This document shows positions 4,549 through 56,470 of a DNA stretch of 64,000 bases, piece after piece; positions within the stretch are counted from its first letter, which is position 1; every line of letters begins with the position of its first letter. A program made the position numbers and the translations under genes. The notes beneath the pieces are model-generated. The model was not told the DNA's origin. It saw only the letters and a list, made by a program, of their open reading frames with translations, and did no database searches. This DNA is from a bacterium (lineage in GTDB: Bacteria; Patescibacteriota; Gracilibacteria; UM-FILTER-43-11). The DNA is taken from NCBI GenBank assembly GCA_030427295.1, contig JAUHWS010000001.1, positions 14,079 to 78,078 of the forward strand, written 5' to 3'.

Positions 4549-4663
4549 GATTAATTTTTTATCCGAATTTATTTGGAGCCTATTCGAGATTTATAAGCGA
4601 TCACCTGCCTGTCGGCAGGGCGGCTAGCGACAAGCGTTTAGGTACCGCCTCAAAACGATGCAT

Positions 4664-4906
4664 TAACCATCCGTAAAACCATCCATAAACCGTACTTTCA
4701 ATGGTGGGCCGAAGGCTGGCCGCATAGTGGCTGATATTAGTTTTATAACCACCATTGGGTCCACAACTCGGTCCACCATCCGCCCCACGATTCGTAAGCT
4801 ATCCGTAGAACAATTCGTTAACCATTCGTAAAACCATCCGAAAACAATTCGTAGGCTATTCGTAAACAATTCGTTAACCATCCGCAACCCATCCGTAACC
4901 CATTCG
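4664..4906 (-). repeat. 11-nt periodic arrays (CCATTCGTAAN on the + strand): about 3 units, a hairpin-containing gap, then about 12 units
   Basis: ..aagctatccgt agaacaattcgt taaccattcgt aaaaccatccg aaaacaattcgt aggctattcgt aaacaattcgt taaccatccgc aacccatccgt aacccattcg. On the minus strand it begins 1 nt after the rny stop. The central gap carries a 9-bp inverted repeat, caatggtgg..ccaccattg. Confidence 0.85.
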
Positions 4907-11572: not shown

Positions 11573-11614
11573 GCAAAAGTATATACTAGGTATATACCTA
11601 GTATATACTTTTGC
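11573..11614. repeat. Perfect 42-bp palindrome with three GTATATAC boxes spaced 11 bp apart
   Basis: GCAAAAGTATATACTAGGTATATACCTAGTATATACTTTTGC equals its own reverse complement. Boxes at 11579-86, 11590-97 and 11601-08. Confidence 0.9.
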
Positions 11615-13145: not shown

Positions 13146-14405
13146 ATGAAATCGATCTTTAAACACCTCATTCAATTTTTGCTGGGATTTAAAGCACATC
13201 GTTTCCTTAAAAAAAATCGTATCCAAGTCATTGCCATCACAGGCAGTGTGGGGAAAACCAGTACCAAAGAAGCCATTTACACGGTCTTGAAGGATCGATT
13301 CTCCGTGATGCGAAGCCGCAAGAGTTTTAACACGCCCATCGGCATGAGTCTAGCCATTCTAGGTGAGGAAGAGTCCGGTTTTTCATCTACAAAAGCCTGG
13401 GTCAAAATCTTATGGCGGGTGTTTGTAAAGAAAGGGGAAATTCCTCAAAAGATCATTCTCGAAATGGGGGCCGACAAACCCGGAGATATCAAGGCGCTCA
13501 TGCGCATTGCTCCACCTCATATTTCCATCGTCACAGCAGTTAAACCGGTTCATTTGGCAGAGGGACAATTCAAAGACATCGATGATATTGCCAAAGAGAA
13601 AGGTCGACTCGTCAACGATCTCCCTCGATTTGGTTTGGCCATTTTAAACCAAGATGACCCCCGTGTCAGTCAAATGAAAACCGTCGCCAAAAAGCTGACC
13701 TACGGCATTGATAGATCGTCAGATTTACAAGCCTCCGAAATCAAAATGACCCCCAAAAAAATCCATTTTGAAGTGCTCTATAAAGGAGAATCAGCCCGTT
13801 GTGAACTACCAGTGGTGGGCGCCTATCATATCTATGTGGCGCTCCCTGCCATTGCGGTGGGCATTTCGATGGGCATGAGTTTAGCCGAATCGTGTAAGAC
13901 ATTGGCTCATTTTCATCTCCCTTCAGGGCGCATGAACCCGATTGAAGGCCTTAATGGGGCGCACATTTTGGATGGTTCCTATAATGCCAGCCCCTCCACC
14001 ATGAAAGCGGCACTACAGATGTTAGAAGAGCTCAAAGCTCCTCGAAAAATAGCAGCCTTAGGGACCATGAATGAGTTAGGAAAACAATCCTTCGACGCCC
14101 ACATTGAAGTGGGAAAAATGGCAGGAGCGATTGCAGATCTAATCATTGCCGTAGGGCCAGAAGCCCAAAATCTCAAGCAGGGTGCCGTGGTCGCAGGGAT
14201 GAATGCTGAGTCTATTTTTACCTTTGACGATTCAAAAGAAGCAGGAGACTTACTCGCCAAAAAACTTCAAGAAGGGGACCTGGTTCTAGTGAAGGGGTCT
14301 CAAAATAAAGTACGCATGGAACGTTTAGTCAAACAAATCATGAAGGACCCCAAGCGCGCCCCCGAACTCCTCTGCCGACAAGGAAAAGCCTGGACTGAAC
14401 GGTGA
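13146..14405 (+). CDS. murF: UDP-N-acetylmuramoyl-tripeptide--D-alanyl-D-alanine ligase
   Basis: Mur ligase P-loop ITGSVGKTSTKE, plus central and C-terminal Mur ligase domains (DGSYNASP). Confidence 0.88.
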   Translation: MKSIFKHLIQFLLGFKAHRFLKKNRIQVIAITGSVGKTSTKEAIYTVLKDRFSVMRSRKSFNTPIGMSLAILGEEESGFSSTKAWVKILWRVFVKKGEIPQKIILEMGADKPGDIKALMRIAPPHISIVTAVKPVHLAEGQFKDIDDIAKEKGRLVNDLPRFGLAILNQDDPRVSQMKTVAKKLTYGIDRSSDLQASEIKMTPKKIHFEVLYKGESARCELPVVGAYHIYVALPAIAVGISMGMSLAESCKTLAHFHLPSGRMNPIEGLNGAHILDGSYNASPSTMKAALQMLEELKAPRKIAALGTMNELGKQSFDAHIEVGKMAGAIADLIIAVGPEAQNLKQGAVVAGMNAESIFTFDDSKEAGDLLAKKLQEGDLVLVKGSQNKVRMERLVKQIMKDPKRAPELLCRQGKAWTER

Positions 14406-14406
14406 A

Positions 14407-14680
14407 GTATATACTCATCCTCTCCCCAACTATATACCTAAGTCTTAAATTTCCAATTCACACCAATTCATTCCAATTCACCCCAAACAAATTTTAAAGT
14501 CTAATTCTTAATTTCTAAATTGGTTTGAATTTGCTTTATTTAAGCTATCTTTATTCCAAATAATGTTTAAAAATTAGACATTCGGAATTCGGTTTTATTT
14601 GGAAATTGTGACATTGGAAATTGGTCATTGAGAAAAAGTATATACCCACCCTCACAAAAAGTATATACCTAAGTATATGG
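14407..14680 (-). repeat. GTATATAC double-box module M2 (interior type 1, inverted relative to M1)
   Basis: Boxes at 14407-14, 14430-37 (CTATATAC), 14638-45 and 14661-68, plus a degenerate box at 14673-80. The first box starts 1 nt after the murF TGA (ggTGAaGTATATAC). Confidence 0.85.
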
Positions 14681-21359: not shown

Positions 21360-21488
21360 TTCGAATGGTTTACGGATTGCTGCGAATCGCTAACGGATCG
21401 TTTAACGAATAGATTGTCACTCTGAATGCAAACCATTCGTAAGCCATTCGTAAAACAACTCGTTAAACCATGCGTGGAACAATCCGAA
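21360..21488. repeat. Two opposed 11-nt periodic arrays (CGAATGG-type, then CCATTCG-type) filling the whole spacer
   Basis: ttcgaatgg tttacggattg ctgcgaatcg ctaacggatcg tttaacgaatag ... aaaccattcgt aagccattcgt aaaacaactcgt taaaccatgcgt ggaacaatccgaaATG. Confidence 0.85.
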
Positions 21489-22097
21489 ATGAAAAATCAC
21501 TACCAAACCCTCGGCCTCACTCCACAAGCCTCGCACGAGGAGATTAAAAAAGCGTATTTTGACTTAGCCAAGAAATACCATCCCGATGCCGGAGATGCCG
21601 CTGAAGTCCGAAAATTCCACGAGCTCACCGAAGCGTACAAAACCCTGACTGACAAAGAGCTCAGGCAGGCGTATGATCTCAGTTTAAAATCGGGTCTCGA
21701 GCAAATTGACCATGTGGAGGAAGAGCTCACCCAAAAAAACCCCGCTGATCCTCTTTTTTCAAAGCAAAAACGCGAATCTTATCGTGATGAAGAACTCCGT
21801 GAATTTCATCAAAACCGTTTCAAAAAAGCAGTCTTTCGGGTCATCTTGCTTTCCATCATCTTCTCCCTACTCGGTGCCTTTTTCGGAATCTTACTCGAAC
21901 ATCCCACCCTCATCACGGGAACAGCCGGCTTGTTGATTGGGCTCAGCTTATCCATCCGCAAAAATTTTGACCTCAGCTCCTTTTTCCCATCCGCAAAACA
22001 ACAAAAAAAACTCAAGCTCCTCCTTTGGTTTGCCATGACGGTAGGGATTTTATACTTTGTCGGTTTGATTTTATTTAGTATTCTATCAAGTGGATAA
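21489..22097 (+). CDS. J-domain (DnaJ-like) membrane protein
   Basis: J domain NHYQTLGL..EIKKAYFDLAKKYHPD, then 3 TM helices at the C-terminus. The ORF opens at 21426 inside the repeat array; ATG 21489 is preferred. Confidence 0.8.
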   Translation: MKNHYQTLGLTPQASHEEIKKAYFDLAKKYHPDAGDAAEVRKFHELTEAYKTLTDKELRQAYDLSLKSGLEQIDHVEEELTQKNPADPLFSKQKRESYRDEELREFHQNRFKKAVFRVILLSIIFSLLGAFFGILLEHPTLITGTAGLLIGLSLSIRKNFDLSSFFPSAKQQKKLKLLLWFAMTVGILYFVGLILFSILSSG

Positions 22098-22824: not shown

Positions 22825-22826
22825 AA

Positions 22827-22855
22827 GTGGTTAGGGGTCAGTGGCTAGCGAGTGG
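22827..22855 (+). repeat. Heptamer word array (gtggtta ggggtca gtggcta gcgagtg)
   Basis: Starts 2 nt after the rpiB stop. It is an inverted partner of 23560-23589. Confidence 0.7.
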
Positions 22856-22899
22856 ATTTCTTTTGTGCTAAAATTGAAGCAATTAATATAGCCGTTCTC

Positions 22900-23217
22900 A
22901 TGAATTCAATCGTTCAAAACAAAGACGATTTGTTGGCTCGTTTACTCGAAAAAAGAGCAGAAATTGAAAAGCATGGCATCAGGCGCTTGGGCCTCTTTGG
23001 CTCCTTTATGAAAAACCAGGTCACTCAAGCAAGTGACGTTGATTTTTTAGTGGAATTTCACACAGGGAAAAAAAATTATCAAAATTTTATCGAGTTGGCC
23101 GAGTTCCTAGAATCCCTTTGTCAACGAAGGGTAGAGCTTGTCACCCCAGAATCACTCAGCCCCTACCTTGCCGACAGTATTAACTCCGAAGTCGAATATA
23201 TCCTTGGATCCGATTAA
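22900..23217 (+). CDS. MNT-type nucleotidyltransferase antitoxin
   Basis: RRLGLFGSFMKNQVTQASDVDFLVEF (GS-x10-DxD minimal nucleotidyltransferase motif). ATG 22900 is preferred over the ORF opening at 22852. Confidence 0.85.
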   Translation: MNSIVQNKDDLLARLLEKRAEIEKHGIRRLGLFGSFMKNQVTQASDVDFLVEFHTGKKNYQNFIELAEFLESLCQRRVELVTPESLSPYLADSINSEVEYILGSD

Positions 23218-23530
23218 ATATCTGCAACATATCTTGGACGAAATCCTTTATTTAGAAAAGGCTTCTAAAGATTTGAGCTATGAGAATTTTTTAAAGGATG
23301 AGAATTTAATAAGGGCGTTCGCAAGAAGTCTTGAAATCATAGGTGAAGCCAGCAAAAAAATCCCAGATGAATTTAAGCAGAATCATGAAGAAATTGAGTG
23401 GAAATCCATGGCTGGGATGAGAGATAGGCTCATTCATGATTATTTTGGAGTGGATTTTGAGTTGGTGTGGGATGTGATTAAAAATCATCTGCCCGCCTTG
23501 AAGTTAAAATTGGAAAAATTGATGAATTAA
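23204..23530 (+). CDS. HepT (DUF86) RNase toxin
   Basis: The RDRLIHDY (RxxxxH) HEPN motif. The probable TTG start at 23204 overlaps the MNT stop, a typical MNT-HepT operon arrangement. Confidence 0.85.
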   Translation: MDPIKYLQHILDEILYLEKASKDLSYENFLKDENLIRAFARSLEIIGEASKKIPDEFKQNHEEIEWKSMAGMRDRLIHDYFGVDFELVWDVIKNHLPALKLKLEKLMN

Positions 23531-23559
23531 ATCGAATGTCATTCTCGTTTCGCAAAAAG

Positions 23560-23589
23560 CTAACCACTGATCACTAGCCACTATCCACT
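23560..23589 (-). repeat. Heptamer word array (reverse complement: gtggata gtggcta gtgatca gtggtta)
   Basis: Runs directly into the rpe ATG at 23590. Inverted partner of 22827-22855. Confidence 0.7.
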
Positions 23590-25710: not shown

Positions 25711-27258
25711 TTGAATAACGCATTGATCATGGAAGAAGAAGGGCTTCAACAAATCGGCGGACCAGAAAAAACTCAAAACCCTGAAGCTAGAACGGCTGAA
25801 GAAATTCGGGCGGAGATAGACGTGCTACTCGATAAATATCGAGAGGCTTTTGAAAGAGGGGGTATTGTTGATCAGCCTAGTATTCATGATCTGGGGCCCA
25901 ATGATTTCAGAAGTCAACCATTTGGAGAATCCGGAACCGGTTATGTGATTGCAAGTGATCTGAGGCGACGGGGGTTGATAGAGGTTCCGTTCGCCGGGAG
26001 CTTAATGATTTCACAGGACACATTGTGGCAAATTCGTGAATTATTGGGTCAACCGCTCATGGACCGAGGTCGCCTACAAATTATTTTAAGTGCATTGGAA
26101 GAACATGAAGCTGTTGACGAAGACACCTTCAGTCAAATGGACATGGACCTTTTGCGCCGAGCTTTAATTAAATTTGGGAATATCGGCTATACCCCTCAGC
26201 TCTACCATGCTACAACCGGTAAATTTCTAGGAAGGCGACATTTTACTGGAGAGCGTCGCAAAGAAATCGCTGATGCGGTAGAGTTCACTGTTTTTGGCAA
26301 AGTTCGTCGTGCTTTATTTGAAAAAGGTTACGTCGATCGTGGGTCTTTAATGACAGTTGACATGAAAGAGTTTTGCCAAGAGCAATTTGAAGGGTTTGGG
26401 AGTGGGTACATGTTAATTAAGTCAATGGCAGAAGCAAATTTAATTACTGTCAATAAGGATGAAAAAAGTGGAATGCTGATTATAAATCGAAATATCTTTG
26501 CACAGATTGTTGATCGATTCGATCTTCCCAAGCTAAATAAAAGGCGGCGAATTGAGTTTTTTGCAGCCCTCGAGGAACACGGTACAACCAGCCGAATCGC
26601 ACTCCGAAAATTAAGTCGTCAATTTGAAGAGGGTTCTATTGAGCTGGGAGGATTCGAATCGGGTAAAGATTTTTATTGGAAATTAACAGGAAGACGATCT
26701 CCAGAAGGATACATTGCCTACCAGCACATGGATGAAATGGCTGACATCATGGGATTTGATTTAGTTGAAGATGCAAAAAAAGCGTTTCGCGAAAAAGGAA
26801 TTCGTAGCCAATCAGAGGTTTTGGCCATGAAAGTGAAAGAATTTTCCCGCATGGATTTCGGTAAGTACGGAACTGGGTATGAAATTGTTAAATCTTTAGC
26901 TGATGAAGGATTACTCCAGGTTGAGCGAAGGGATGGCAGTAAAGTGAGGGTCAAAAAGCCTGTATTAAAACAATTGTGTAAGCTATTAGAACTGCCACTT
27001 ATTAGCAAAAAAGAGCATGCCAAAATAAGTCATGCATTGGAAACAAAAAGAGTTGTGGACAGAGAAAGCTTAAAAGCCTTAAAAATTGATGAATTAAGAA
27101 GGGGGGGAATAAAATTTGGAGAACTTGGAACCATTCGAGCTATTTACAAAGCTATTTTTGGTGAATCAATAAAAGGTAGGCTTCAACCAAGTCACTTGGA
27201 CCAAATCGCCGATGTTATTTTCGACGGCAAAATTCCAGAAGGAGCATTGGAAAGTTAG
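25711..27258 (+). CDS. Hypothetical protein with three tandem modules of about 130 aa
   Basis: Three copies of the pattern ..F(G)xxG(T/S)GYxI(x)S(L/M)Axxx(L)(I/L)xV.. followed by ..L(x)(L/Q)P(L)..(R/K)xxIxxALE(E/T)(H/K).. at about aa 60-160, 215-300 and 375-465. TTG start at 25711, with ATG 25729 as an alternative. Confidence 0.6.
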   Translation: MNNALIMEEEGLQQIGGPEKTQNPEARTAEEIRAEIDVLLDKYREAFERGGIVDQPSIHDLGPNDFRSQPFGESGTGYVIASDLRRRGLIEVPFAGSLMISQDTLWQIRELLGQPLMDRGRLQIILSALEEHEAVDEDTFSQMDMDLLRRALIKFGNIGYTPQLYHATTGKFLGRRHFTGERRKEIADAVEFTVFGKVRRALFEKGYVDRGSLMTVDMKEFCQEQFEGFGSGYMLIKSMAEANLITVNKDEKSGMLIINRNIFAQIVDRFDLPKLNKRRRIEFFAALEEHGTTSRIALRKLSRQFEEGSIELGGFESGKDFYWKLTGRRSPEGYIAYQHMDEMADIMGFDLVEDAKKAFREKGIRSQSEVLAMKVKEFSRMDFGKYGTGYEIVKSLADEGLLQVERRDGSKVRVKKPVLKQLCKLLELPLISKKEHAKISHALETKRVVDRESLKALKIDELRRGGIKFGELGTIRAIYKAIFGESIKGRLQPSHLDQIADVIFDGKIPEGALES

Positions 27259-27278
27259 ATCGCTTTCCAGACAAAACC

Positions 27279-27307
27279 TTGCAACTTCAAGTTCCTTTAG
27301 ATAAAAT
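27279..27307 (+). promoter_or_regulatory. Sigma-70-like promoter (TTGCAA-17-TAAAAT) about 175 nt upstream of the tRNA
   Basis: TTGCAA at 27279-84, a 17-nt spacer, TAAAAT at 27302-07. Confidence 0.45.
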
Positions 27308-27481
27308 GACCAAGCTCCTTTTTTCAAAACCGCATTCCTAGAAAAAAGGGGTCCCCATGAAATGCGAAATGAATCCCGAACAAAGTGAGGGATGAATGAA
27401 TTTCGTGGGGAGGAGGAGTTCACAAAAGTTGAAGCAAATGCTGAGCAAGCAGATGCGTAAACTGAAGTGAAGCGACGACGA

Positions 27482-27558
27482 GCGCCAGTAGCTCAGGGGA
27501 TTAGAGCGTCCGGTTGCGGTCCGGGAGGTCGCAGGTTCGATTCCTGCCTGGCGCACCA
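27482..27558 (+). tRNA. tRNA-Arg (anticodon GCG), CCA encoded
   Basis: Cloverleaf read by hand: acceptor GCGCCAG/CTGGCGC, D arm GCTC-AGGGGATTA-GAGC, anticodon arm TCCGG-TTGCGGT-CCGGG, variable loop AGGTC, T arm GCAGG-TTCGATT-CCTGC, discriminator A, then CCA. Confidence 0.9.
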
Positions 27559-27682
27559 TCGCAAAATAATGCTTCAGCTTGCACATGAGTCTCATTCTAA
27601 GCCTCCTGTTTCAGCTTATGTACCATTTTGCTCTTTCCCATGAAATATGCCTTCGACTTCGCATTTTATGGGGACCTCTGAC

Positions 27683-27773
27683 TAATCGCTAATCGCTAAT
27701 CGCTAATCGCTAATCACTAATCGCTAATCACTAATCGCTAATCACTAATCACTAATCGCTAATCACTAATCGC
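27683..27773 (+). repeat. Perfect-phase heptamer microsatellite, 13 units of TAATCGC/TAATCAC
   Basis: Read directly. The order of G/A unit variants is G G G G A G A G A A G A G. Confidence 0.92.
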
Positions 27774-27873
27774 TCTTTAAAAATCATTGATATTTCCGCA
27801 AAGCCGAAAACGCACACCAGCCGAACAAAGAATTCCCCTTCCTCTCCCGCCCGCTTTACACTACAATACAGCC

Positions 27874-28521
27874 ATGATCAGCTTTCAAAATGTCAGCAAA
27901 AAATTCGGGTCGCATTTAGTGCTCGACGACATCACGTTTTACATCGATAAGAACGAATTCGTCATCCTAACTGGTTCCTCTGGGGCCGGGAAGTCCACCG
28001 TGATCGCGCTCCTCATTGGAGCTGAAAAACCCACCCATGGGGTCATCGAAGTCGACGACATGCACATCAGCGACATGGACACCTCCACCCTACAACTCCT
28101 GCGCCGAAAAATCGGAGTGGTTTATCAAGATTACAAACTCCTCGATAAAAAAACCGTTTTCGAAAACGTCGCGTTTGCCATGGAGGTCTGCAACGAAGAC
28201 GATGATAAAATCAAGGAACGCGTCCCCGAAGTGCTCGAAAAAGTCGGACTACTTCATTTTCAGGATAAATTTCCCGACGAACTTTCTGGAGGGGAAAAAC
28301 AACGCCTTTCCATCGCCCGAGCCCTCGTGCACAACCCCTACCTCATCATCGCCGATGAACCCACGGGGAACCTGGACGAAGAAAATGTTCGAGGGATCAT
28401 CCACCTCCTTCAAAAACTCCACAAAGAAGGCGCCACCGTGCTCCTGACCACCCACGATCCCAAAGTTAAAGAACTCGTCAAAGGCCGGATGTTAACGTTG
28501 GAGAAAGGGAAAATTAACTGA
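27874..28521 (+). CDS. ftsE: Cell-division ABC transporter ATP-binding protein FtsE
   Basis: Walker A GSSGAGKST, signature LSGGEKQRLSIARAL, Walker B LIIADEPTGNLD. About 215 aa from ATG 27874. No ftsX gene is adjacent. Confidence 0.85.
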   Translation: MISFQNVSKKFGSHLVLDDITFYIDKNEFVILTGSSGAGKSTVIALLIGAEKPTHGVIEVDDMHISDMDTSTLQLLRRKIGVVYQDYKLLDKKTVFENVAFAMEVCNEDDDKIKERVPEVLEKVGLLHFQDKFPDELSGGEKQRLSIARALVHNPYLIIADEPTGNLDEENVRGIIHLLQKLHKEGATVLLTTHDPKVKELVKGRMLTLEKGKIN

Positions 28522-28650
28522 TGAAGCGACTAGCGAGTAGCGACGAGCGATTAGCTAAAATAGATCTTAGAATAGAGCTAAACACTACACGCCAATCGCT
28601 AAACGCTCTAAAAATTCGTAATTCGTAATTTGTAACTCGTAATTAAAAAG
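28522..28650 (-). repeat. Box-less copy of module interior type 2 (AGCGNNN and ATTCGTA heptamer blocks)
   Basis: tgaagcgact agcgagt agcgacg agcgatt agc ... aattcgt aattcgt aatttgt aactcgt aatt aligns with the reverse complement of 31140-31270. It fills the ftsE-purM spacer. Confidence 0.75.
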
Positions 28651-29697
28651 ATGACCACCTACAAAGAATCCGGCGTTGATGTTGATTTGGGCGATCGTTG
28701 TTCCAAAATCGCCTACCAGGCGGCCAAAAATACCTTCTCGGGTCGAACTGGAATGATTGGTCAGGCCGTCACCGATGAAGGAGGATTTGCCGGACTTTTG
28801 GACATGGGCGATTTTTATTTGGTCCAGAATGACGATGGCGTGGGAACCAAAATCGAAGTGGCTGAAAAAATGAAGCAATTCGACACGCTGGGTTACGACC
28901 TGATCGCCATGGTGGCCGATGACGCAATTTGCCTGGGCGCTGAAACCATCTCCATCACCAACACCCTGGATTCTCCAGGTCTGGATGAGCCAATGATCAA
29001 AGGTCTCATGGAAGGGCTAGAAAAAGCCGCCCTAGAACAAAAAATCGTCATTCCTGGGGGTGAACTCGCTGAGCTTGGCGGGGCCCTCAACGGCAACGTA
29101 TGGAATGCTACCGCCGTGGGCATCCTCAAAAAAGATCGCGTGATTACAGGTTCGGATATCCAAGTGGGGGATGCGATTTTAGGCTTCAAATCCAAGGGCG
29201 TTCGTTCCAATGGATTGTCACTGGCGAGACACATCCTCCACAAAAACTTTGGAGACAATTGGGTCGACGAACCCTACAACGACCAAGAAACATGGGGGCA
29301 AGTCGTTCTCACTCCCTCCAAAATCTACAGCCGCGCTCTACTCAATATCATCGGCACCTTCGACGAACCCAAAGCCCACTTCATCAAAGGCCTGGTTCAC
29401 AACACAGGCGGAGGCATCAAGGGCAACTTACCTCGACTTCTCAAAAAACAGGACTTCGGAGCCACGCTGGACCACCTGATTCAACCACACCCTTTCATGC
29501 TCAAATTGATGGAATTGGGCAGTGTTTCCTTTGAAGAAGCTTACAAAACCTGGAACATGGGTGTCGGCATGATGGCCGTTTGCCACCAGGATAAGGCCGA
29601 TGAGCTCATCGCTCAACTCCGCGAAAATAACATCGACGCTCAGATCATTGGAGACGTGACTGATACAGGAAACATTGAATTCGTGTATCCCCATTAG
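28651..29697 (+). CDS. purM: Phosphoribosylformylglycinamidine cyclo-ligase (AIR synthetase)
   Basis: TYKESGVDVDLGD.., DDGVGTKIEVA, PGGELAE: the PurM family pattern. Confidence 0.88.
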   Translation: MTTYKESGVDVDLGDRCSKIAYQAAKNTFSGRTGMIGQAVTDEGGFAGLLDMGDFYLVQNDDGVGTKIEVAEKMKQFDTLGYDLIAMVADDAICLGAETISITNTLDSPGLDEPMIKGLMEGLEKAALEQKIVIPGGELAELGGALNGNVWNATAVGILKKDRVITGSDIQVGDAILGFKSKGVRSNGLSLARHILHKNFGDNWVDEPYNDQETWGQVVLTPSKIYSRALLNIIGTFDEPKAHFIKGLVHNTGGGIKGNLPRLLKKQDFGATLDHLIQPHPFMLKLMELGSVSFEEAYKTWNMGVGMMAVCHQDKADELIAQLRENNIDAQIIGDVTDTGNIEFVYPH

Positions 29698-29726
29698 ACA
29701 TCAGAAATTAGCCATCAGACATCAAA
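29698..29726 (+). repeat. Heptamer word array (acatcag aaattag ccatcag acatcaa) filling the entire purM / DUF1704 spacer
   Basis: Begins at the nt after the purM TAG and ends at the ATG at 29727. Related words (agacatc/agacatt) recur at 56471-56554. Confidence 0.7.
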
Positions 29727-31088
29727 ATGCAGTCTAAAAAAACCCACACCACTCCACTCGACACCCAATGGCTTGCTCAATTCGAACCCCTGGGAGCCTT
29801 TCAAGCTCACCAATTTTTTTCAAATGTCAAAGGGGGATTGTCCACGATTAAAAAATCATTTCTTTCAGATGAAATCGAAAACCCCCATTTTGAGTACATA
29901 GACATCAATCCCTCCGATTTGGATGAGAAGAAGCAAGCACTCCTGGATCTAAAAAAAGAACTGCTCAAAAGCGAAAAAAATGAGGTGGTTCAATCGGCTT
30001 ACGAATGGAAAATTGACGAGAAGCTTACTGAGCTCAAACTCCTTCAAGCCGTCTTGCAAAACGACATGGAGACATTTCAGAAAACCAACGAATCACTCTA
30101 TGGCTCACCCGCTCCCGACTTATTTGCTCACAGTCTCCAAGTCATCCACCATGAAATCCAGGTCGCTCAAAATCCCGATCATGCTGATTTAATGCACGCG
30201 GCCACTGATTTAAAAGAGAAGCTCCCACCACTTTCTTCCACCAAAACCGAGATTGCCCTGCCGTCTAAAACACGGATTGAAAGCATCAAAGTTTATGTCC
30301 AAAAACAACTCCAGCTTCTTTTAGGCGAAGCGTATGAAAGTCTTCAAGAAGGCATCCAAGCGAAAAAAAATTATTCAAATGTCGAATTAAAAGCTCTTTT
30401 TCAAAGCGTTTTAGGGCATCTAAACGCCAATGATTGGACGGTCATTGCTCATGATCATTCGGAACGGGGTGTTTTTAGTATCGATCAAGGCAAAAAAGAC
30501 ATTCACATCCCCGAACGTGTTTACCCTGCCCAACGGGTTCTCGAGCTGGTGGCACACGAAATTGGTGTCCATGTTGTCAGGCGACTTCATGGAGATCGGG
30601 CCCCCCTCAAACTTCTAAGTATTGGCCTCGATCGTTACACACGAGGGGACGAAGGCTTGGCAGCCACCTTGGAAGATGCCATCAAACCAGAGCTCCACGA
30701 TTTTTTTGGTCTCGATCGCTACCTGGCCATCAGTTTAGCACTAGGATTGGATGGTAAAAAAAGAAATTTTAGGCAGGTCTTCGAGATCATGAAATCCTTT
30801 CACATTTTTAGGGGATGGCAAGCCAATCTCCCCTCCGAAAAAATTCCCGAACTTGCTCAAGAAAAAGCCTGGATGAATACCTACCGCACGTTCCGAGGCA
30901 CCAATGGTCAGCAAGCCGGTTTTTGCTACACCAAAGACATGCTTTACCGCGAAGGAAATATTGGCGTTTGGGATCTCCTAGCAAATGTCCCCACGTCTAA
31001 TGTGGAAGATCACATTGAAACACTCCTCCTCGGAAAATACGATCCCCTCAACTCTCGCCATCAATGGGTGATGGAGCAATTGGGGTGA
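29727..31088 (+). CDS. DUF1704 (QEGLA-motif, MATCAP-like) putative metallocarboxypeptidase
   Basis: HEIGVHVVR zinc-binding-like motif and RGDEGLAATLE (QEGLA-type motif). Confidence 0.7.
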   Translation: MQSKKTHTTPLDTQWLAQFEPLGAFQAHQFFSNVKGGLSTIKKSFLSDEIENPHFEYIDINPSDLDEKKQALLDLKKELLKSEKNEVVQSAYEWKIDEKLTELKLLQAVLQNDMETFQKTNESLYGSPAPDLFAHSLQVIHHEIQVAQNPDHADLMHAATDLKEKLPPLSSTKTEIALPSKTRIESIKVYVQKQLQLLLGEAYESLQEGIQAKKNYSNVELKALFQSVLGHLNANDWTVIAHDHSERGVFSIDQGKKDIHIPERVYPAQRVLELVAHEIGVHVVRRLHGDRAPLKLLSIGLDRYTRGDEGLAATLEDAIKPELHDFFGLDRYLAISLALGLDGKKRNFRQVFEIMKSFHIFRGWQANLPSEKIPELAQEKAWMNTYRTFRGTNGQQAGFCYTKDMLYREGNIGVWDLLANVPTSNVEDHIETLLLGKYDPLNSRHQWVMEQLG

Positions 31089-31102
31089 GAGTGTGCACTT
31101 AG

Positions 31103-31343
31103 GTATATACTTTGGGTTGGGGTGGGTATATACTTTCGCCTCAATTACGAGTTACTAATTACGAATTACGAGTTTATTTTTTGAGCGTATAGCGATCAGC
31201 GTATAGCGTTTAGCTTTTTAAAATAAGGTTTTTAGCTAATCGCTACTCGCTATTCGCTAATCGCTTGTTGAAAAATGTATTGAGATGGTGCTCAGCATTT
31301 TGAAGAGGGTGAGTATATAGTTGAGGCGAGGATGAGTATATAC
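31103..31343 (+). repeat. GTATATAC double-box module M3 (interior type 2)
   Basis: Boxes at 31103-10, 31126-33, 31313-20 (GTATATAG) and 31336-43. The interior has ATTACGA x4, AGCGNNN x5 and CGCTANT x4 heptamer blocks, homologous to 50039-50270. Confidence 0.85.
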
Positions 31344-31404
31344 TCTTGGCACTCTCCTAAAATTATGTTAGCCTAAAGGCACTTTATTAACCTATTTTTT
31401 CTTT

Positions 31405-32082
31405 ATGGAAAACCAAGCTTTATTCGACGACATCAAACAAAAAATTGACGAAAAACACATGCTCAACCACCCGTTCTACCAAGTGTGGTCCAAAGGAACC
31501 TTGACTAAAGAAGAGTTGGCGGATTACTTGGCTCAATATTTTTATCTCGAAGCAGCCTTCCCACGCTTCATGAGTGGGCTCCATGCGCGCACCCTCGACG
31601 CGGACATGCGTCAAAAAATGTTGGACAATCTCGTTCATGAAGAAATGGGTCCCAACAATCACGTCGCACAACTCGTCCATCTCGCGGAAAAAGCCTTCGG
31701 GATGACCAAAGAAATGATCATGGAAATTGGCCCCAACGAAAAGACCAAAGCCATCATTAAAGCTTTCGAAGAAGCCACTCAATCGGACGACATTCAAGAA
31801 GGATTGGCAGCCATGATCGTTTACAAACAACAAGTTTCTGACGTGGCTCAAACCAAGCTCGACGGACTCAAAGAGCACTACGGGGTCACGGATCAAAAGT
31901 CTCTTGAATTCTACGAAACTCATGCCGAAATCAACCGTGACTACCACCAAATGCTCGATCAAGTGTACCAACCCCTTTCTCGCGACAAGGTGCTCAAAAA
32001 AACCGAAACCATCCGCGATGCCTTCTGGGGCTTTTTGGATGGCGTGACCACTCCAGAAATTCTAGAACGCTGCGAGATGTAA
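31405..32082 (+). CDS. Heme-oxygenase-like di-iron oxidase (CADD/PqqC/TenA-like family)
   Basis: HPFYQVWSKGTLTKEELADYLAQYFYLEAAFPRFMS..HEEMGPNNH: the pattern of CADD/PqqC-like proteins. Confidence 0.7.
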   Translation: MENQALFDDIKQKIDEKHMLNHPFYQVWSKGTLTKEELADYLAQYFYLEAAFPRFMSGLHARTLDADMRQKMLDNLVHEEMGPNNHVAQLVHLAEKAFGMTKEMIMEIGPNEKTKAIIKAFEEATQSDDIQEGLAAMIVYKQQVSDVAQTKLDGLKEHYGVTDQKSLEFYETHAEINRDYHQMLDQVYQPLSRDKVLKKTETIRDAFWGFLDGVTTPEILERCEM

Positions 32083-33995: not shown

Positions 33996-34110
33996 ACGAA
34001 TGGGATGCGGATAGGTTGCGAATGGGCGACGGATAGTTTTACGAATGGCTTCACGGATGGTTTACGGATTGTTTTTGAATAGGGTGCGAATAGGTTACGA
34101 ATTGATTTCG
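33996..34110 (+). repeat. 11-nt periodic array, about 10 units (acgaatgg gatgcggatag gttgcgaatgg gcgacggatag ...)
   Basis: Starts at the nt immediately after the dprA TAA. It lies between convergent genes. Confidence 0.88.
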
Positions 34111-35836: not shown

Positions 35837-35945
35837 GATCTTAATTTAATGAGATAAAACAGCTCCATTGTACACAATTTGTGTTAAAATAGCATCCACT
35901 AAAATCGTTCACGTGAATGAGGGGATCAAAAACATCGGCCACTTA

Positions 35946-36350
35946 ATGCTGTTCGTCCTACTCTCCATCCATTTGGGATTCATGTTTCTCATCCTTTCAC
36001 CCACCCCCCTACTCTTTCGAATGAACTACGAATCCCTCCCCCTGGTAGAGGCTTCTCTGATTCCCAAAAAGGTCCAACGTTTTTTAGAGGATTCAAGCAC
36101 ACCTCTTTCCATTTCCTCAGATGGGGCGGTCAATTTCTCCGACCAACTCAAGGCCAAATTCCTCGAATTCCGTCGCGAAAAATTTTTGGATGACACCGAA
36201 CGTCTCGCCCTCGATCTCAGTCTGGTCAACTTTGGCTCAGACATTTTGGGTATGGAAGCCGGCGCTCAATATTATTTTCAAAAACCTCTCAGTGATCTCA
36301 CCGAGGACCAATGGATGTCGCTGATTTATTTTCAGGCGATTTTTAATTGA
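35946..36350 (+). pseudogene. Truncated/degenerate GT51 peptidoglycan transglycosylase-like gene
   Basis: TM helix, then ..IPKKVQRFLEDSS.. where EDxxFxxHxG is expected, then LDLSLVNFGSDILGMEAGAQYYFQKPLSDLTEDQWMSL (GT51 motif-3-like). The ORF ends about 80 aa early, directly at an 11-mer array. Confidence 0.45.
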
Positions 36351-36436
36351 GCGGATAGGTTACGAATGGGTTGCGGATAGCTGCGAATGGTTTACGAATA
36401 GTTAACGGATAGGTTGCGGATGGGTAGCGAATGGTT
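36351..36436 (+). repeat. 11-nt periodic array, about 8 units (gcggatag gttacgaatgg gttgcggatag ctgcgaatgg tttacgaatag ttaacggatag gttgcggatgg gtagcgaatgg)
   Basis: Starts at the nt after the TGA at 36348-50. Confidence 0.88.
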
Positions 36437-36465
36437 AAGGAGTTATCCCTTTTAATAACATAGTA

Positions 36466-42364: not shown

Positions 42365-42790
42365 ATGAGAAGTGTTAATAAGGTCATCCTTGTTGGAAAC
42401 CTCACACGAGATCCTGAGCTCAAGCAAACGACAGGAGGACAATCCATTGTCACCTTTGGCATGGCCACCAATCGAGAATGGGTCACGGGAGACAATGAAA
42501 AAAAATCACTTGCCGAATACCACAATATTGCTGCTTGGGGACCCCTCGCTGAAATTTGTGGAAAATACCTCAAAAAAGGAAAATTAGTCTACATCGAAGG
42601 CTACTTAAAAACACGCTCATGGGACAGTCCGGAAGGGGTAAAAATCTTCAAGACTGAGATTGTCGCCACTGACATGATCATGCTCGACAAGCGCCCTCAA
42701 GATGAGGGCTTGCCAAATAACGACCATTTTGAAGATCATATGAGCAGCCCTGAAGAGCCGGATGACAATGTATTTGATCCCGCTGCCTAA
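42365..42790 (+). CDS. ssb: Single-stranded DNA-binding protein
   Basis: OB-fold pattern VNKVILVGNLTRDPELK..TFGMATNREW..EYHNIAAWGPLAEICGKYLKKGKLVYIEGYLKTRSWD. The acidic tail ends DDNVFDPAA. Confidence 0.9.
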   Translation: MRSVNKVILVGNLTRDPELKQTTGGQSIVTFGMATNREWVTGDNEKKSLAEYHNIAAWGPLAEICGKYLKKGKLVYIEGYLKTRSWDSPEGVKIFKTEIVATDMIMLDKRPQDEGLPNNDHFEDHMSSPEEPDDNVFDPAA

Positions 42791-47236: not shown

Positions 47237-47281
47237 TTTTACAGAACTCGCTAATCACTAACCGCTAATCGCTCTAATTCT

Positions 47282-47838: not shown

Positions 47839-48867
47839 ATGTCCAATAAGATCAGCCTAAAAAAATGTGTGAGTCTTTTTTTGGCGACCATGGCATTGGT
47901 GGTTTATCTGCCTACCTTTGCCCAAGGTCAAGACGAAGCAAAAAAGGGATTTTTGGATGTCGCCAGGACGCACGAATATTATGTGCCCATCACCTATTTG
48001 GCGAGCCAAGAAGTGATCAAGGGGTATGATGATGGCAATTTCAAATCTGACAAATTTGTCAATAAGGCTGAGGCCCTAAAAATCATCATTGAAGGCTCAG
48101 ACATTCCAACCGATGTTGTCTTTAGCCCCCTTTTTCCGGATGTCACTCAAGCTGATTGGTTTTGGAGTTACGTGATGAAGGCTCATGGACTGGGCATCGT
48201 CAACGGGAATGACGAAGATGGAACGTTCACTGGTTACGAAGTCGTCAATTTGGCGGAGTTCCTAAAGATGCTCCTCTTAGCCAACGAGATTGATGTCACG
48301 ATTTTTGAAGGCAAGCAAATTGTTCCGAATGTCGATCCCGCCGTGTGGTTTTCGAATTACGCCAGCTACGCCGCTCAAACTGGGATCATCAGTCTGAATG
48401 AAAATGGAGAAATCGACCCCTCTGCCACCCTAACTCGTGGAGAAGTGGTCAATCTGATGTACCTCCTCATTATTGTCATGAATGGCTCAGACACCGATTT
48501 TCTGACCGAACAAATGGAGCAACAAGTTGGACAAATTGAGATCTACATTGCCGACAATCGCTTGGATTTAGCCAAAACCGCCTCCAAACTGGCCGATGAC
48601 ATCGGGCAGCAAATCATCAAAAATGACGGAGAAGATCTCACGGTTGTGGCAGCCGCCAAGGTGGCCCGTGCCTATGATTTATTGGTGGATGCTTACATTG
48701 CAGGCACCGAAGGTAACAATGAAAAGGCCACTGATCTGGCCAATCAAGTCATCCAAAAGGCCAATGAAGCTCAAGAGACCGACGGAGCCCAAGAAAGCAT
48801 CGCCATCCACCTAAAAGAAATCGCCCAGGACATTCTAGAAGAGGTCGAAGCCGATACTACTCAGTAA
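47839..48867 (+). CDS. Secreted protein with three S-layer-homology (SLH) domains and a C-terminal helical region
   Basis: Signal peptide, then three SLH-like repeats: FLDVARTHEYYVPITYLASQEVIKGYDDGNFKSDKFVNKAEALKII; FPDVTQADWFWSYVMKAHGLGIVNG..; VDPAVWFSNYASYAAQTGII..LTRGEVVNLM. Confidence 0.75.
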   Translation: MSNKISLKKCVSLFLATMALVVYLPTFAQGQDEAKKGFLDVARTHEYYVPITYLASQEVIKGYDDGNFKSDKFVNKAEALKIIIEGSDIPTDVVFSPLFPDVTQADWFWSYVMKAHGLGIVNGNDEDGTFTGYEVVNLAEFLKMLLLANEIDVTIFEGKQIVPNVDPAVWFSNYASYAAQTGIISLNENGEIDPSATLTRGEVVNLMYLLIIVMNGSDTDFLTEQMEQQVGQIEIYIADNRLDLAKTASKLADDIGQQIIKNDGEDLTVVAAAKVARAYDLLVDAYIAGTEGNNEKATDLANQVIQKANEAQETDGAQESIAIHLKEIAQDILEEVEADTTQ

Positions 48868-48900
48868 AACCAACTAAAAACCAGCTAAAAACCAGACAAA
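48868..48900 (+). repeat. 3 x 11-nt array (aaccaactaaa aaccagctaaa aaccagacaaa)
   Basis: Starts at the nt after the SLH-protein TAA. Confidence 0.8.
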
Positions 48901-49400: not shown

Positions 49401-49757
49401 ATGACCAATCCCGACACCCGTGACCCCACTTTAGAGGATCTTGTCGAAGAAGTGGCAGGAACAATAATTGGCCCTAATATCAACATAAAACCGCAAGGGT
49501 TAAGGGTAAGAGCAGAAGCACTTGAAAATGACAGCTATTTGAGAGAGAAAGTTTTAGCTGGCGCACGCAGAGCAATTATGGATGTCGACAGAAAGAGTGA
49601 TTGGTTTCCTAGACTGATGGAGGGGATAGCGCAAGGCACCGACGCAGAGAGGTTAAGGCTAGCGGCCTTTTACCGAGCTCTCGCAGAAAAACTGACAAAA
49701 ATAAGTTCCCAAGCTGGTTCTGTTGACCAGTCAATTTCTGCTGCTGCATCAGCTTAA
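49401..49757 (+). CDS. Hypothetical protein (ORFan)
   Basis: 118-aa ORF with no recognisable motif. Confidence 0.45.
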   Translation: MTNPDTRDPTLEDLVEEVAGTIIGPNINIKPQGLRVRAEALENDSYLREKVLAGARRAIMDVDRKSDWFPRLMEGIAQGTDAERLRLAAFYRALAEKLTKISSQAGSVDQSISAAASA

Positions 49758-49810
49758 TCTCTCAACAGGAGTGCACGTAAGTAGGCTTCGGCATTGAATT
49801 TTTTGGCAAA

Positions 49811-50009
49811 CCCTGAAGGCGAGATTGGCTAATCTCGCCTTCATTGAAAAATAAGAAAACCATTTGTCATCCTTGGAACCCTAAGGGCCCCTTAGGGGCT
49901 TGATCCAAGAGTTGTCTGTATCTGGAACCTCTGAATTCAAAAAGACTCCCAAGTTCACCTTTTTGGTAAACCACTCGCTAAGCTCGTGGACCATAAAGGC
50001 TCGGGAGTG
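49811..50009 (+). repeat. About 200-bp structured repeat R, copy 2
   Basis: Near-identical to 1144-1343 and likewise followed directly by a GTATATAC module. Confidence 0.85.
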
Positions 50010-50038
50010 ACATTAAGGTGTGGGGTAGGTATATACTT

Positions 50039-50270
50039 TGTGTGAGGGTTAGTATATACTTTATTCTTAGTTACGAATTACGAGTGACGAATTACGAGTT
50101 GATTTTTTGAGCGTTTAGCGGTCAGCGTATAGCGTTTAGCTCTATTCTAAGCTCTATTTCAGCTAATCGCTAGCCACTCACCACTGACCACTTGCCGAAA
50201 AAGGAAGCGGGACGATTCCCAGCATTTCGAAGAAGGTAGGTATATAGTTGGGAAGAAGGTGAGTATATAC
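50039..50270 (+). repeat. GTATATAC double-box module M5 (interior type 2)
   Basis: Boxes at 50039-46, 50062-69, 50240-47 (GTATATAG) and 50263-70. The interior is homologous to M3. Confidence 0.85.
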
Positions 50271-50282
50271 TTCTTTTCCAGC

Positions 50283-50310
50283 TTGTCTTTTTCGCTCCAA
50301 TCGGTATACT
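50283..50310 (+). promoter_or_regulatory. Candidate promoter for fusA (TTGTCT-16-TATACT)
   Basis: TTGTCT at 50283-88, a 16-nt spacer, TATACT at 50305-10, about 105 nt upstream of the fusA ATG. Confidence 0.4.
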
Positions 50311-50414
50311 ATCTTCGCCTTTTTATTGAAGTGACAACGAGTGGAAAGCAATTCCAGCTGCCCAGGGTCACTCACTATAAACAGTAAGTAATCAATAATA
50401 ATTAATAATTCAAT

Positions 50415-52502: not shown

Positions 52503-52545
52503 GTCTAATTCATTCCAATACGTTCCAATTCATTACAATTTCCAA

Positions 52546-56469: not shown

Positions 56470-56470
56470 A

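Follow-up and report, generated by a model that had tools for sequence, protein, structure and literature searches.

Heptanucleotide arrays and mosaic repeat modules in the intergenic spacers of a Gracilibacteria genome fragment

Introduction

Tandem repeats with heptanucleotide units are the most abundant class of long simple-sequence repeats (LSSRs) in many prokaryotes, where they are mostly intergenic and where polymerase slippage has been proposed as their source (Mrazek, Guo & Shah 2007, as summarised in PMC4679880 and PMC4692102). Related heptamers include the short tandemly repeated repetitive (STRR) sequences of Calothrix and Nostoc (Mazel et al. 1990, as cited in PMC4692102), the promoter-proximal heptamers of Nostoc, for which modest, unresolved expression effects are described (bioRxiv 10.1101/2022.06.06.494920), and the GGGAATC and GGGGA(T/C)T repeats of Xanthomonas and Nostoc, which occupy the same gene pairs across species, vary in length and sequence and form inverted pairs (Rehm et al. 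2015, PMC4692102). In Beggiatoaceae, Cyanobacteria and Bacteroidetes, 2-6 copies of TAACTGA precede start codons in spacers without a Shine-Dalgarno sequence, among them spacers of ribosomal-protein operons, and the stops which this word places in all three forward frames have been discussed as a constraint on the location of the repeat (MacGregor 2015, PMC4679880). None of these four systems has a demonstrated function. Here we describe the short tandem arrays in the intergenic spacers of a stretch of 64,000 nucleotides (nt) from a bacterium of the Patescibacteriota (Gracilibacteria, UM-FILTER-43-11; assembly GCA_030427295.1, contig JAUHWS010000001.1, positions 14,079 to 78,078), hereafter the window, together with the dispersed repeat families that carry many of them.

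Other short extragenic elements are modular, such as the repetitive extragenic palindromic sequences and bacterial interspersed mosaic elements (REP/BIME) of E. coli, the enterobacterial repetitive intergenic consensus (ERIC) and the pneumococcal BOX, which often lie 3' of genes and form hairpins that stabilise or process mRNA. According to the "ambush" hypothesis and the idea of tandem stops, extra stop codons inside a coding sequence, or in frame after it, limit the cost of read-through or frameshift. For the Candidate Phyla Radiation (CPR) and Peregrinibacteria, we found no earlier report of such repeats in the literature, and in the Peribacteria genome paper the repeats described are limited to a single long direct repeat and short ones near the origin.

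Results

Short-period arrays in the spacers

The gene model, which was built from the longest non-overlapping open reading frames (ORFs) and the tRNA, divided the window into 11.1 kb of spacer and 52.8 kb of coding DNA. The lag autocorrelation of the spacers was compared with 200 dinucleotide-preserving shuffles, and Tandem Repeats Finder (TRF) was run identically on the real spacers and on 100 shuffled versions. An earlier note on this stretch had proposed a comparison of this kind, and it turned out that intergenic periodicity lies far above chance: the identity at lag 7 is 0.311 against 0.269 in the shuffles (z=9.8), the periodicity at lag 11 reaches z=6.6, and lags 14 and 21 are likewise raised. 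In the spacers, TRF called 16 arrays of period 7 against 0.27 expected (shuffle maximum 2), 9 of period 10 (0.53 expected), 7 of period 11 (0.31 expected) and 3 of period 14, while the coding DNA is free of period-7 arrays. The possibility that the arrays are coding was considered and rejected, since their periods are not multiples of 3 and stops occur within them.

A 13-unit TAATCGC/TAATCAC microsatellite, reported in the earlier note, was borne out by TRF, which placed it at 27682-27774 on the plus strand (score 151) as 13.3 units of CTAATCG/CTAATCA that vary at one position only (R = G/A). It is located between the tRNA-Arg(GCG) gene (27482-27558) on one side and ftsE on the other, and its RNA is predicted to be nearly unstructured (minimum free energy -1.4 kcal/mol over 116 nt, z=+2.08). 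Nearly all of the other word arrays listed there were also recovered, by TRF or in the sequence, namely 961-990 (AGCTGGT), 28525-55 (AGCGNNN), 28613-44 (AATTCGT), 29693-29719 (period 14), 23560-91, 47248-73 (in the spacer between the S12 and S7 genes), 48866-95 (an 11-mer), 52507-40 and 14453-86 (10-mers), 56470-502, 56531-56, 57974-58006, 58370-401 and 58834-63. For the GTGGCTA pair, the copy at 23560-91 is present, while that at 22827-55 is weakly periodic and has no TRF call.

When reduced by rotation and strand, the heptamers come down to about 12 words. Most arrays are short (3-5 units) and degenerate (75-90% unit identity) with position-specific conservation, and the AGCG core of the heptamers is fixed. 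With at least three head-to-tail 7-nt units, an excess over composition, confinement to non-coding DNA and a rapid turnover, they show the properties by which LSSR and STRR sequences are recognised.

Location of arrays relative to stop and start codons

An array was regarded as adjacent to a stop or start codon when it lay within 6 nt of it, and the expectation was obtained by random placement of each array in its own spacer. In the window, 10 of 46 arrays are adjacent to a stop codon against 2.4 expected (P<2e-4), and this enrichment is replicated in 40-odd Peribacteria-like loci of relatives (11 of 37 against 5.0, P=0.001). Adjacency to start codons is not enriched, neither in the window (4 against 2.0 expected, P=0.13) nor in the relatives (9 against 8.3). 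The statement that most arrays start right after a stop codon is therefore right as an enrichment and wrong as a majority. At the junctions, units frequently open with a stop triplet (TAA, TAG or TGA) that lies in register with that of the gene, as in [TAA] TAGCGAT TAACGAT TAGCGAG and [TGA] TGAAGCGAC TAGCGAG.

Dispersed families and mosaic modules

The words had been described as locus-specific, which for the most part did not hold up: 13 of the 19 period-7/14 arrays lie inside sequence common to another locus, and the words belong to a few families related by rotation or reverse complement. Of the spacer DNA, 32.8% is accounted for by arrays and dispersed families. One family is marked by a box, the 8-bp palindrome GTATATAC, which is found 22 times in the window against 0.15 expected. 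The boxes bound seven modules of 220-265 nt, usually as two boxes 23 nt apart; the exception is a cluster at 11579-11608, outside the full modules and between a giant gene with LTD and nuclease domains and the next ORF, in which three boxes stand 11 nt apart. In the alignment of the seven copies, a common left end (AGTATATACTCACCCTCTCCTCAACTATATACCTA) and a common right end (AAGTATATACCCACCC...AAAGTATATACCTAAG) enclose three unrelated and interchangeable interiors, A, B and C. The ends are direct terminal repeats of about 35 nt, each with two of the palindromes, and by eye, in the alignment of module A1, they are about 75% identical in direct orientation (GTATATAC-YCACC...). Seven dispersed short non-coding copies in 64 kb are as expected of a miniature inverted-repeat transposable element (MITE), but a classical MITE was rejected, since the module ends are in direct and not in inverted orientation.

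Module A1 (1363-1626, minus strand; self-BLAST) has an interior of inverted CCAATTCA-type 10-mer arrays and matches the reverse complement of 14406-14668 with 83% identity over 265 nt; its left end abuts the TGA stop (1627-1629) of a minus-strand glycosyltransferase gene. Module A2 (14407-14668, plus strand; self-BLAST) starts 1 nt after the TGA (14403-14405) of a Mur-ligase gene, and its interior arrays, 14453-86 and 14599-635, are inverted partners. Module B1 (31103-31343, minus strand; self-BLAST and alignment) carries two box pairs as direct terminal repeats and AATTACG, AGCGTAT and GCTAATC arrays in its interior, the last two of which are predicted to form a "zipper" hairpin (z=-5.46, 31180-31270). 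Its paralogue B2 (50029-50270, minus strand; self-BLAST) shares 77% identity over 248 nt and is preceded by a family-E repeat. Module C1 (36931-37149, plus strand; self-BLAST) contains inverted AGCTNNN and NNNAGCT arrays with a predicted hairpin (z=-2.58), and the segment 36929-37149 shares 82% identity over 221 nt with 60132-60352. The latter belongs to a longer segment (59923-60352, plus strand; self-BLAST, boxes and alignment), in which a partial module, X, is followed by module C2 (60134-60352). X consists of the left end and an AGCGAGT array (60001-31) and starts 1 nt after the TGA (59919-21) of an FMO-like gene.

Three of the seven modules begin exactly at the TGA of the upstream gene (...GTGA, then AGTATATAC), namely at 14403-05, at 59919-21 and, on the reverse complement, at 1627-29, and a TGA lies within the left terminus of the module itself in 4 of 7 copies. 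The boxed element may supply or replace the stop codon of a gene. Pairs of boxes were found in none of the loci of relatives, and a metagenome scan for the module right end gave 0 matches. Rfam, searched over the whole window at the gathering threshold, reported the tRNA-Arg only, and on 49700-50450 it gave no match at E<=1.

Besides, a repeat of about 200 nt (family E) is present at 1144-1345 and 49811-50012 with 93% identity, beside modules A1 and B2, and has no Rfam match. At its start is a near-perfect palindrome of 28 nt (GAAGGCGAGG...CCTCGCCTTC), in which the copies differ by a paired G:C to A:T change. The GAAGGCGAGG/CCTCGCCTTC stem, with another loop and a T-run, is also the canonical terminator behind fusA (about 52555-52600), so that the fusA terminator stem is reused in family E.

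Turnover of arrays among relatives

As relatives we used PurM-centred loci from GTDB genomes, the nearest of which have 72-73% PurM identity; these loci place the source among the Peregrinibacteria/Peribacteria (CPR, Patescibacteria). Synteny is scant across gene pairs, and ftsE-purM is the sole informative spacer for a comparison of lengths. Across 34 relatives this spacer measures 2-205 nt. It is 129 nt long in the window, 2-11 nt and array-free in L001-L003 and in L067, the sole intermediate relative found (83% PurM identity, a 2-kb contig of the Joint Genome Institute, JGI), which served as the empty site; in L004, L007 and L012 it is a run of 27-34 nt built of heptamers whose words are unrelated, and in L005 it is 166 nt long and holds two ATTTCGC arrays that form an inverted pair. 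Because orthologous spacers differ to this extent, the arrays are regarded as lineage-specific additions with a fast turnover, not as conserved elements.

In the window, the ftsE-purM spacer (28522-28644; self-BLAST) is a reverse-oriented copy of the family-B interior. The segment 28524-28644 matches the reverse complement of 31143-31266 with 81% identity over 125 nt (E=4e-25), and the spacer matches that of 50064-50171 with 83%. It is made of the AGCGNNN array at 28525-55, its inverted partner at about 28575-28612 and the AATTCGT array at 28613-44; the first two are predicted to form a zipper hairpin directly behind the ftsE stop (z=-3.3). The empty site in relatives is seen only for this box-less family-B fragment.

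The comparison with related genomes, also proposed in the earlier note, revealed that the word arrays are not restricted to the window. Period 7 is the most enriched period in 63 kb of Peribacteria-like spacers (26 arrays against 3.1; for period 14, 7 against 0.7), and the Cloacimonadota outgroup loci contain 6 period-7 arrays against 0.88. The density is 1.7 arrays per kb of spacer in the window and 0.5 in the relatives, a difference of about 3-fold, and the words vary from genome to genome. Long near-perfect heptamer microsatellites were observed in Cloacimonadota (15.6 x ATTTAAG in L039, 372-480) and in Peribacteria (6.9 and 8.7 x AGATTGA in L051, 3436-3651; 5.9 x CTATCAG in L049, 4429-4469), so the 13-unit array is not unique in length.

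A probable origin of the arrays

On balance, we favour the view that the arrays are heptanucleotide repeats of the LSSR/STRR type, which were amplified by mosaic elements in a Peregrinibacteria/Peribacteria (CPR) genome and pile up behind stops. Following the literature on such repeats, they would arise and change their length by replication slippage or unequal recombination. Arrays with periods of 7, 10 and 11, which are not multiples of 3, would be purged from coding DNA and survive in spacers, in line with the zero count in the coding DNA. In a compact genome whose ancestral spacers had a few nt, the stretch after a stop and before the next promoter or start may be the least constrained one, which would account for the adjacency observed. 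Much of the array load was not made in place; it is carried by genome-specific mosaic elements (the boxed modules A, B and C, and the period-11 family D described below), and copies or fragments of these have, as the comparison with relatives shows, been inserted into spacers such as ftsE-purM. Paired inverted arrays are predicted in silico to form zipper hairpins and may serve as mRNA 3'-end or processing hairpins, while lone arrays, for example the 13-unit one, are predicted to be unstructured and are probably without a sequence-specific role. The richness in TAA and TAG would come mainly from the composition of the words, from seeding beside stops and from a filter against the extension of ORFs.

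Several observations weigh against this origin. Slippage itself was not observed, the comparison covering one strain (L064, 99.87% identical) and one short array, that at 47248-47273 (3.7 units), which is unchanged. Exact matches to the PurM, S12 and S10 proteins came only from contigs of the same strain or of a strain 99.87% identical; FtsE gave none, as short contigs break at the repeats, and no contig spans the 13-unit array. The conserved AGCG and family-D cores resemble a binding or pairing constraint more than neutral decay, and all five stop-adjacent family-D arrays are sense-oriented (P ~0.03). A control using the own composition of the words reduces the excess of stop words in the window but does not remove it (12 of 12 against 8.4, P=0.01). 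In addition, Pfam information, which covers 41 proteins of the 64-kb window (40 by scanning, and a bAvd-like gene by precomputed hits), revealed no transposase, REP-associated tyrosine transposase (RAYT) or other mobilising enzyme.

Paired arrays, hairpins and gene brackets

A different reading, which we consider unlikely, is that paired arrays are RNA-hairpin cassettes, long imperfect hairpins placed right behind stops or around entire cistrons, acting like REP, BIME or ERIC elements, as blocks to 3' exonucleases, as sites for RNase III or RNase Y or as terminators independent of a U-tract. They would set differential expression in operons, lone arrays would be half-sites or debris, and the whole could be an added layer compatible with an origin as LSSR/STRR-type repeats. 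In silico, the zipper hairpin is paired through the four conserved bases of each heptamer (AGCG with CGCU), and the three variable ones are left in small internal loops; that the conserved 4-nt cores coincide with the paired positions speaks for this reading. Paired arrays fold with z=-2.6 to -8, the single values being -7.95, -5.46, -3.30, -3.05 and -2.58, whereas lone arrays have z=+0.6 to +2.1. A significant inverted partner within 220 nt was found for 7 of 42 arrays in the window and for 12 of 59 in the relatives, far above chance, and the same architecture occurs with other words at ftsE-purM and rpiB-rpe in L005 and L007. On the other hand, about 80% of the arrays are partnerless, no U-tract of the kind that marks Rho-independent terminators follows the zipper hairpins, and scans for terminators are not enriched: around the 13-unit array, promoter and terminator consensus scans did no better than shuffles, and the terminator scan of 27200-31500 gave 1 site against 5.5 expected. 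The hairpins are absent in the closest relatives, hence not essential. The opposite idea, that arrays are selected as unstructured RNA, was rejected as a general one, the pooled mean being z=-0.6 with paired arrays structured and lone arrays unstructured.

Inverted arrays also bracket genes. Five brackets, around the tRNA-Arg gene, ftsE, the bAvd-like gene, the FMO-like gene and an MNT/HepT pair, have a predicted duplex z of -5 to -11, which would suit the hairpin reading too. ftsE is preceded by the 13-unit array, and its stop is directly followed by an AGCGANT array; the 13-unit array is complementary to the 28525-28555 array on the far side of the gene. The bAvd-like gene (58473-58832; 23S_rRNA_IVP/bAvd by Pfam) stands behind rpsJ between the arms 58369-99 and 58834-64 (31 nt, 81%), and the FMO-like gene is bracketed by inverted arrays, the array at 58834-58864 being also complementary to that at 60001-31. 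The MNT/HepT pair, identified by Pfam, lies between the inverted heptamer arms GTGGCTA/TAGCCAC at 22826-49 and 23559-82 (24 nt, 83%). In all ten relatives that carry both rpiB and rpe, the two genes are directly adjacent without a toxin-antitoxin pair, and for this reason the array-toxin-antitoxin-array segment is taken as an insertion. MNT/HepT combines a nucleotidyltransferase with a HEPN RNase, and the inserted segment between rpiB and rpe spans 22825-23589. In the relative L005, the rpiB-rpe spacer has a paired-array hairpin without a gene inside.

Alternation of the strand in the ATCGCTA/TAGCGAT family would create such brackets, yet it is found in 5 of 7 cases (P=0.23), which is not significant and counts against the hairpin reading as well; deliberate bracketing of genes was rejected on the same grounds. 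Only the toxin-antitoxin and the tRNA brackets are clearly specific, their sequences being found nowhere else in the window. The latter is a non-heptameric inverted repeat of 22 nt (27347-27368 and 27658-27679) around tRNA-Arg(GCG), 91% complementary with 289 nt between the arms (duplex z=-9.7), and its right arm ends 3 nt before the start of the 13-unit array. This repeat might serve as a stem for precursor processing, or mark the two ends of a tRNA cassette that was inserted.

A more far-reaching proposal joins modules, hairpins and brackets, and we regard it as speculative and quite unlikely. The arrays would be working parts of a genome-specific non-autonomous mobile system, in which GTATATAC-box cassettes dock at gene 3' ends, in three of seven cases with their own terminal TGA serving as the stop, and deliver zipper hairpins or brackets whose cores (AGCG, CGRATNG) are read by a putative protein or RNase, while accessory genes (MNT/HepT and possibly the bAvd-like gene) ride between the arms.

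Family D and the question of protein binding

Family D has a period of 11 and the unit T-R-C-G-R-A-T-N-G-N-T with the conserved core CGRATNG, and the similarity between its arrays extends into an adjoining tail. When six arrays were aligned without an anchor, the bases C, G, A, T and G came out as invariant columns in each of five successive units. Of the units anchored on CGNAT, every one (49 of 49) has the non-anchored G at position 9, with positions 8 and 10 nearly free. The spacing equals 11 nt in 31 of 41 intervals, and triple-unit matches number 18 against 0 expected.

Five of the six arrays begin 0-3 nt past a stop, behind the genes for RNase Y, PheS, DprA and two others, and these five are G-rich on the sense strand. 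On the plus strand these are 33996-34102, from the dprA stop (TRF); 36351-36440, from the stop of gene 35868-36350 (TRF); 54019-54160, with the conserved tail, 3 nt past the stop of gene 53272-54018 (self-BLAST); and 21360-21489, an inverted pair behind the pheS stop with a long predicted hairpin (TRF; fold z=-3.05). On the minus strand, the array 4790-4906 with its tail (4640-4906; TRF and self-BLAST) stands directly behind the RNase Y stop (4909), and 54019-54160 shares 80% identity over 116 nt with the reverse complement of 4704-4817. The sole copy not behind a stop, 2704-2830 (plus strand; array and tail; TRF), is located in a divergent spacer 160 nt upstream of a PurA-like gene. The uniform sense orientation of the stop-adjacent copies hints at a role at the RNA level or linked to transcription. 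The gene 2930-3274 encodes the PurA-like (PUR-alpha/DUF3276) protein, which binds single-stranded DNA or RNA and is a candidate binder of purine-rich repeats.

Such regularity is what one would expect if the arrays were platforms for protein binding, with the heptads bound by an omega-type ribbon-helix-helix (RHH) repressor or centromere protein and the period-11 repeats offering one site per helical turn on a single face of the DNA, or bound by a multi-domain RNA binder such as the PurA-like protein. We think this decidedly unlikely. In its favour are the fixed AGCG, the invariant family-D columns and spacing, the PurA-like gene adjoining one D array and the sense orientation of D arrays behind genes. 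AATCACT, the reading of 5 of the units of the 13-unit array, would also fit WATCACW, the heptad of omega-type RHH proteins. Against it, about 12 unrelated words coexist, which is beyond a single specific binder; the heptamer families occur in both orientations relative to transcription; and none of the 41 window proteins covered by Pfam is RHH or omega-like. The family-D motif is also absent from the loci of relatives and not general. A scan with a four-unit motif gave at least 120 metagenome matches and 27 viral ones, and scrambled-core controls gave 11 and 37 viral matches, so the matches are generic 11-mer repeats, and CGRATNG at 11-nt spacing was rejected as a widespread conserved motif.

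Dozens of short contigs (L068-L187; for example L068, 50-89, L073 and L090) share a dispersed element with TCGAATCGTAG-type 11-mer arrays at its end and CGCAATTGTAATAGGCCCATTA behind them. One JGI study series (Ga0126325-Ga0126334) accounts for many of these contigs, and the arrays are usually at contig ends. The family is analogous, yet unrelated, and belongs to a different organism.

Stop content and translation

The arrays had been read as six-frame stop cassettes, that is, as a frame-independent translational firewall, selected to put stops in every frame behind each gene. We hold this to be very improbable. What speaks for it is the stop content: in heptamer arrays 4.21 of 6 frames contain a stop, where three controls (spacer windows outside arrays, arrays after shuffling, and perfect arrays built from shuffled units) come to about 2.7, and 14 of 16 consensus heptamers contain TAA or TAG on either strand against 7.0 expected from random spacer 7-mers (P=0.001), which agrees, for this window, with the claim that nearly all words do so. 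An in-frame second stop within 3 codons is marginally enriched (15 against 9.4, P=0.04), and the gathering of arrays within 6 nt of stops, with units in register with the stop of the gene, would also suit a firewall. The source lineage is sister to the UGA-recoding Gracilibacteria/Absconditabacteria, so the fidelity of stops could matter in it.

The frames themselves, however, are not closed as the claim requires. All six are closed by only 2 of the 19 period-7/14 arrays (27682-27774 and 47248-47273), the three plus-strand frames by 7 and the three minus-strand frames by 8 of 19. All three sense frames are closed within 21, 30 and 45 nt past the stop for 2, 4 and 14 of 53 genes, where shuffles give 0.9, 3.4 and 10.2, and all differences are non-significant. 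In the Peribacteria relatives, the own-composition control leaves no excess of stop words (17 of 19 against 15.6), and some stop-abutting arrays there have words that are stop-free on both strands (ATTTCGC in L005; TCCACTT/TCCTCTT in L045). Besides, the closest relatives are array-free, most arrays are copies of dispersed elements, and stops in antisense frames would be purposeless in such a model. The data do not support the repeats as a purpose-built barrier to stray translation. The richness in stops is better explained as a by-product of word composition, together with a filter on what gene ends tolerate, since the words are A/T-rich with TA, the arrays are seeded next to a stop or include it, and stop-free sequence at a gene end would extend the protein.

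It is hardly credible that the arrays are leaders for translation initiation, that is, unstructured landing pads for ribosomes independent of a Shine-Dalgarno sequence, as proposed for the TAACTGA repeats of Beggiatoaceae (PMC4679880). Lone arrays are indeed unusually unstructured (z up to +2.1), and those at 28613-44, 47248-73, 48935-55 and 50377-409 end 3-8 nt before a start with no obvious Shine-Dalgarno sequence, but arrays are not enriched next to starts, many lie at a distance from any start or between convergent genes, and the orthologous genes of close relatives lack them.

An artefact of assembly or binning, in the form of mis-assembled low-complexity joins, can practically be dismissed: the source is a short-read metagenome-assembled genome (MAG) and the copy number of the 91-nt 13-unit array is unverifiable from contigs, yet in Logan three contigs of run ERR3428543, produced by another assembler, agree with the window at 100% identity across 9.6 kb and more than 10 arrays, a contig from another sample (run SRR36445358, the sole certainly independent run) is 99.87% identical, and related arrays are found in dozens of unrelated MAGs. 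The contigs from the other assembler break exactly at the dispersed families.

Other spacer arrays and gene order

Further arrays begin at or close to the stop of the preceding gene. The purM-MATCAP spacer (29693-29726, plus strand; TRF) has a period-14 unit that opens with the purM stop codon (TAGACATCAGAAAT / TAGCCATCAGACAT). An AGCTNNN array (955-1021, plus strand; TRF 961-990) lies directly behind the stop of a SpoIIE-like gene and duplicates one of the arms in the interior of family C, with 87.5% identity to the reverse complement of 60254-60317. In the 11-mer array at 48868-48895 (plus strand; TRF), the first unit opens with the TAA stop of the gene (TAAAACCAAC / TAAAAACCAGC / TAAAAACCAGAC), and a 10-mer array (AATTCATTCC; 52507-52540, plus strand; TRF) starts 4 nt past the fusA stop and is followed by the canonical terminator hairpin near 52560. 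At 56470-56556 (plus strand; TRF), an AATGTCT array and its inverted partner CATCAGA form a predicted zipper hairpin from the stop codon onwards (fold z=-7.95 for 56467-56562), and a promoter-like TTGACA-N17-TAAAAT, read by eye, stands just downstream. The TAGCGAT/TAACGAT array at 58369-58399 (plus strand; TRF) begins at the rpsJ stop (TAA TAG...), and the TAATCGT array at 58834-58864 (plus strand; TRF) starts 1 nt past the stop of the bAvd-like gene.

The array between rpsL and rpsG (47248-47273, plus strand; TRF; S12 and S7 by Pfam) consists of 3.7 units of TCGCTAA. The order of the conserved rpoB-rpoC-rpsL-rpsG-fusA cluster around it is unusual, in that a gene for single-stranded DNA-binding protein (SSB) separates rpoB from rpoC, and rpsG and fusA have an SLH-domain (S-layer homology) gene and two unknown ORFs between them (coordinates 42365-42790 and 47839-48867).

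Discussion

If the favoured reading is right, the bias towards heptanucleotide intergenic repeats extends to the Candidate Phyla Radiation, and the value of the present data is descriptive. Even in a streamlined genome of roughly the 1-Mb class, repeats can then take up about one third of the spacers; in practice, they fragment short-read assemblies of such genomes. The replicated rule that arrays gather behind stops and not before starts is one that functional models must account for. If the proposal of a mobile system were true, it would mean a new kind of operon-spacer or 3'-UTR (untranslated region) regulatory and cassette-capture element in CPR bacteria, and would provide a tractable case of how non-coding cassettes and small accessory genes spread through compact genomes and of how expression within operons might be tuned in uncultured organisms. 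In our opinion, the stop-docking mosaic elements and the gene-bracketing inverted arrays are the most worthwhile parts.

Compared with known systems, the ambush hypothesis and tandem stops share their core idea with a firewall, while here the closure of frames past genes is not above composition. In their design, the modules are similar to REP/BIME-type elements in being an extragenic mosaic of interchangeable motifs with hairpins (z=-2.6 to -5.5) at which contigs break. In contrast to them, the ends are direct repeats of about 35 nt, the interiors consist of heptamer sub-repeats, and no RAYT-like or other transposase is among the 41 window proteins covered by Pfam.

Among heptamer systems, the GGGAATC-type repeats are G-rich and capable of forming G-quadruplexes, whereas the present heptamers are A/T/C-rich with TAA or TAG and only family D is G-rich. 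The TAACTGA repeats are likewise intergenic heptamer direct repeats, found also in ribosomal-protein operons, and the lone arrays here similarly have no predicted RNA structure. That system, however, has a single word, in forward orientation and immediately before starts, while about 12 words are found here in both orientations and close to stops; a TAACTGA dimer with up to 2 mismatches does not occur in the window. With the STRR and Nostoc heptamers, as far as the accounts cited here describe them, our arrays share the presence of several words per genome, each at many intergenic loci, and of some inverted pairs with stem-loops. The Nostoc and STRR arrays are mainly near promoters and start codons, and the same accounts contain no description of modules bounded by boxes like GTATATAC; those of the window are at stops, in another phylum and with other words.

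The closest likeness in character is to the LSSRs of Mrazek and colleagues, as these are summarised in later papers: period 7 is dominant, the repeats are kept to intergenic DNA by a unit length not divisible by 3, and their distribution is phylogenetically scattered and their evolution fast. Measured against that summary, the arrays of the window are short and degenerate with conserved cores, about 3-fold denser than in the relatives, enriched at stops and largely carried in mosaic elements.

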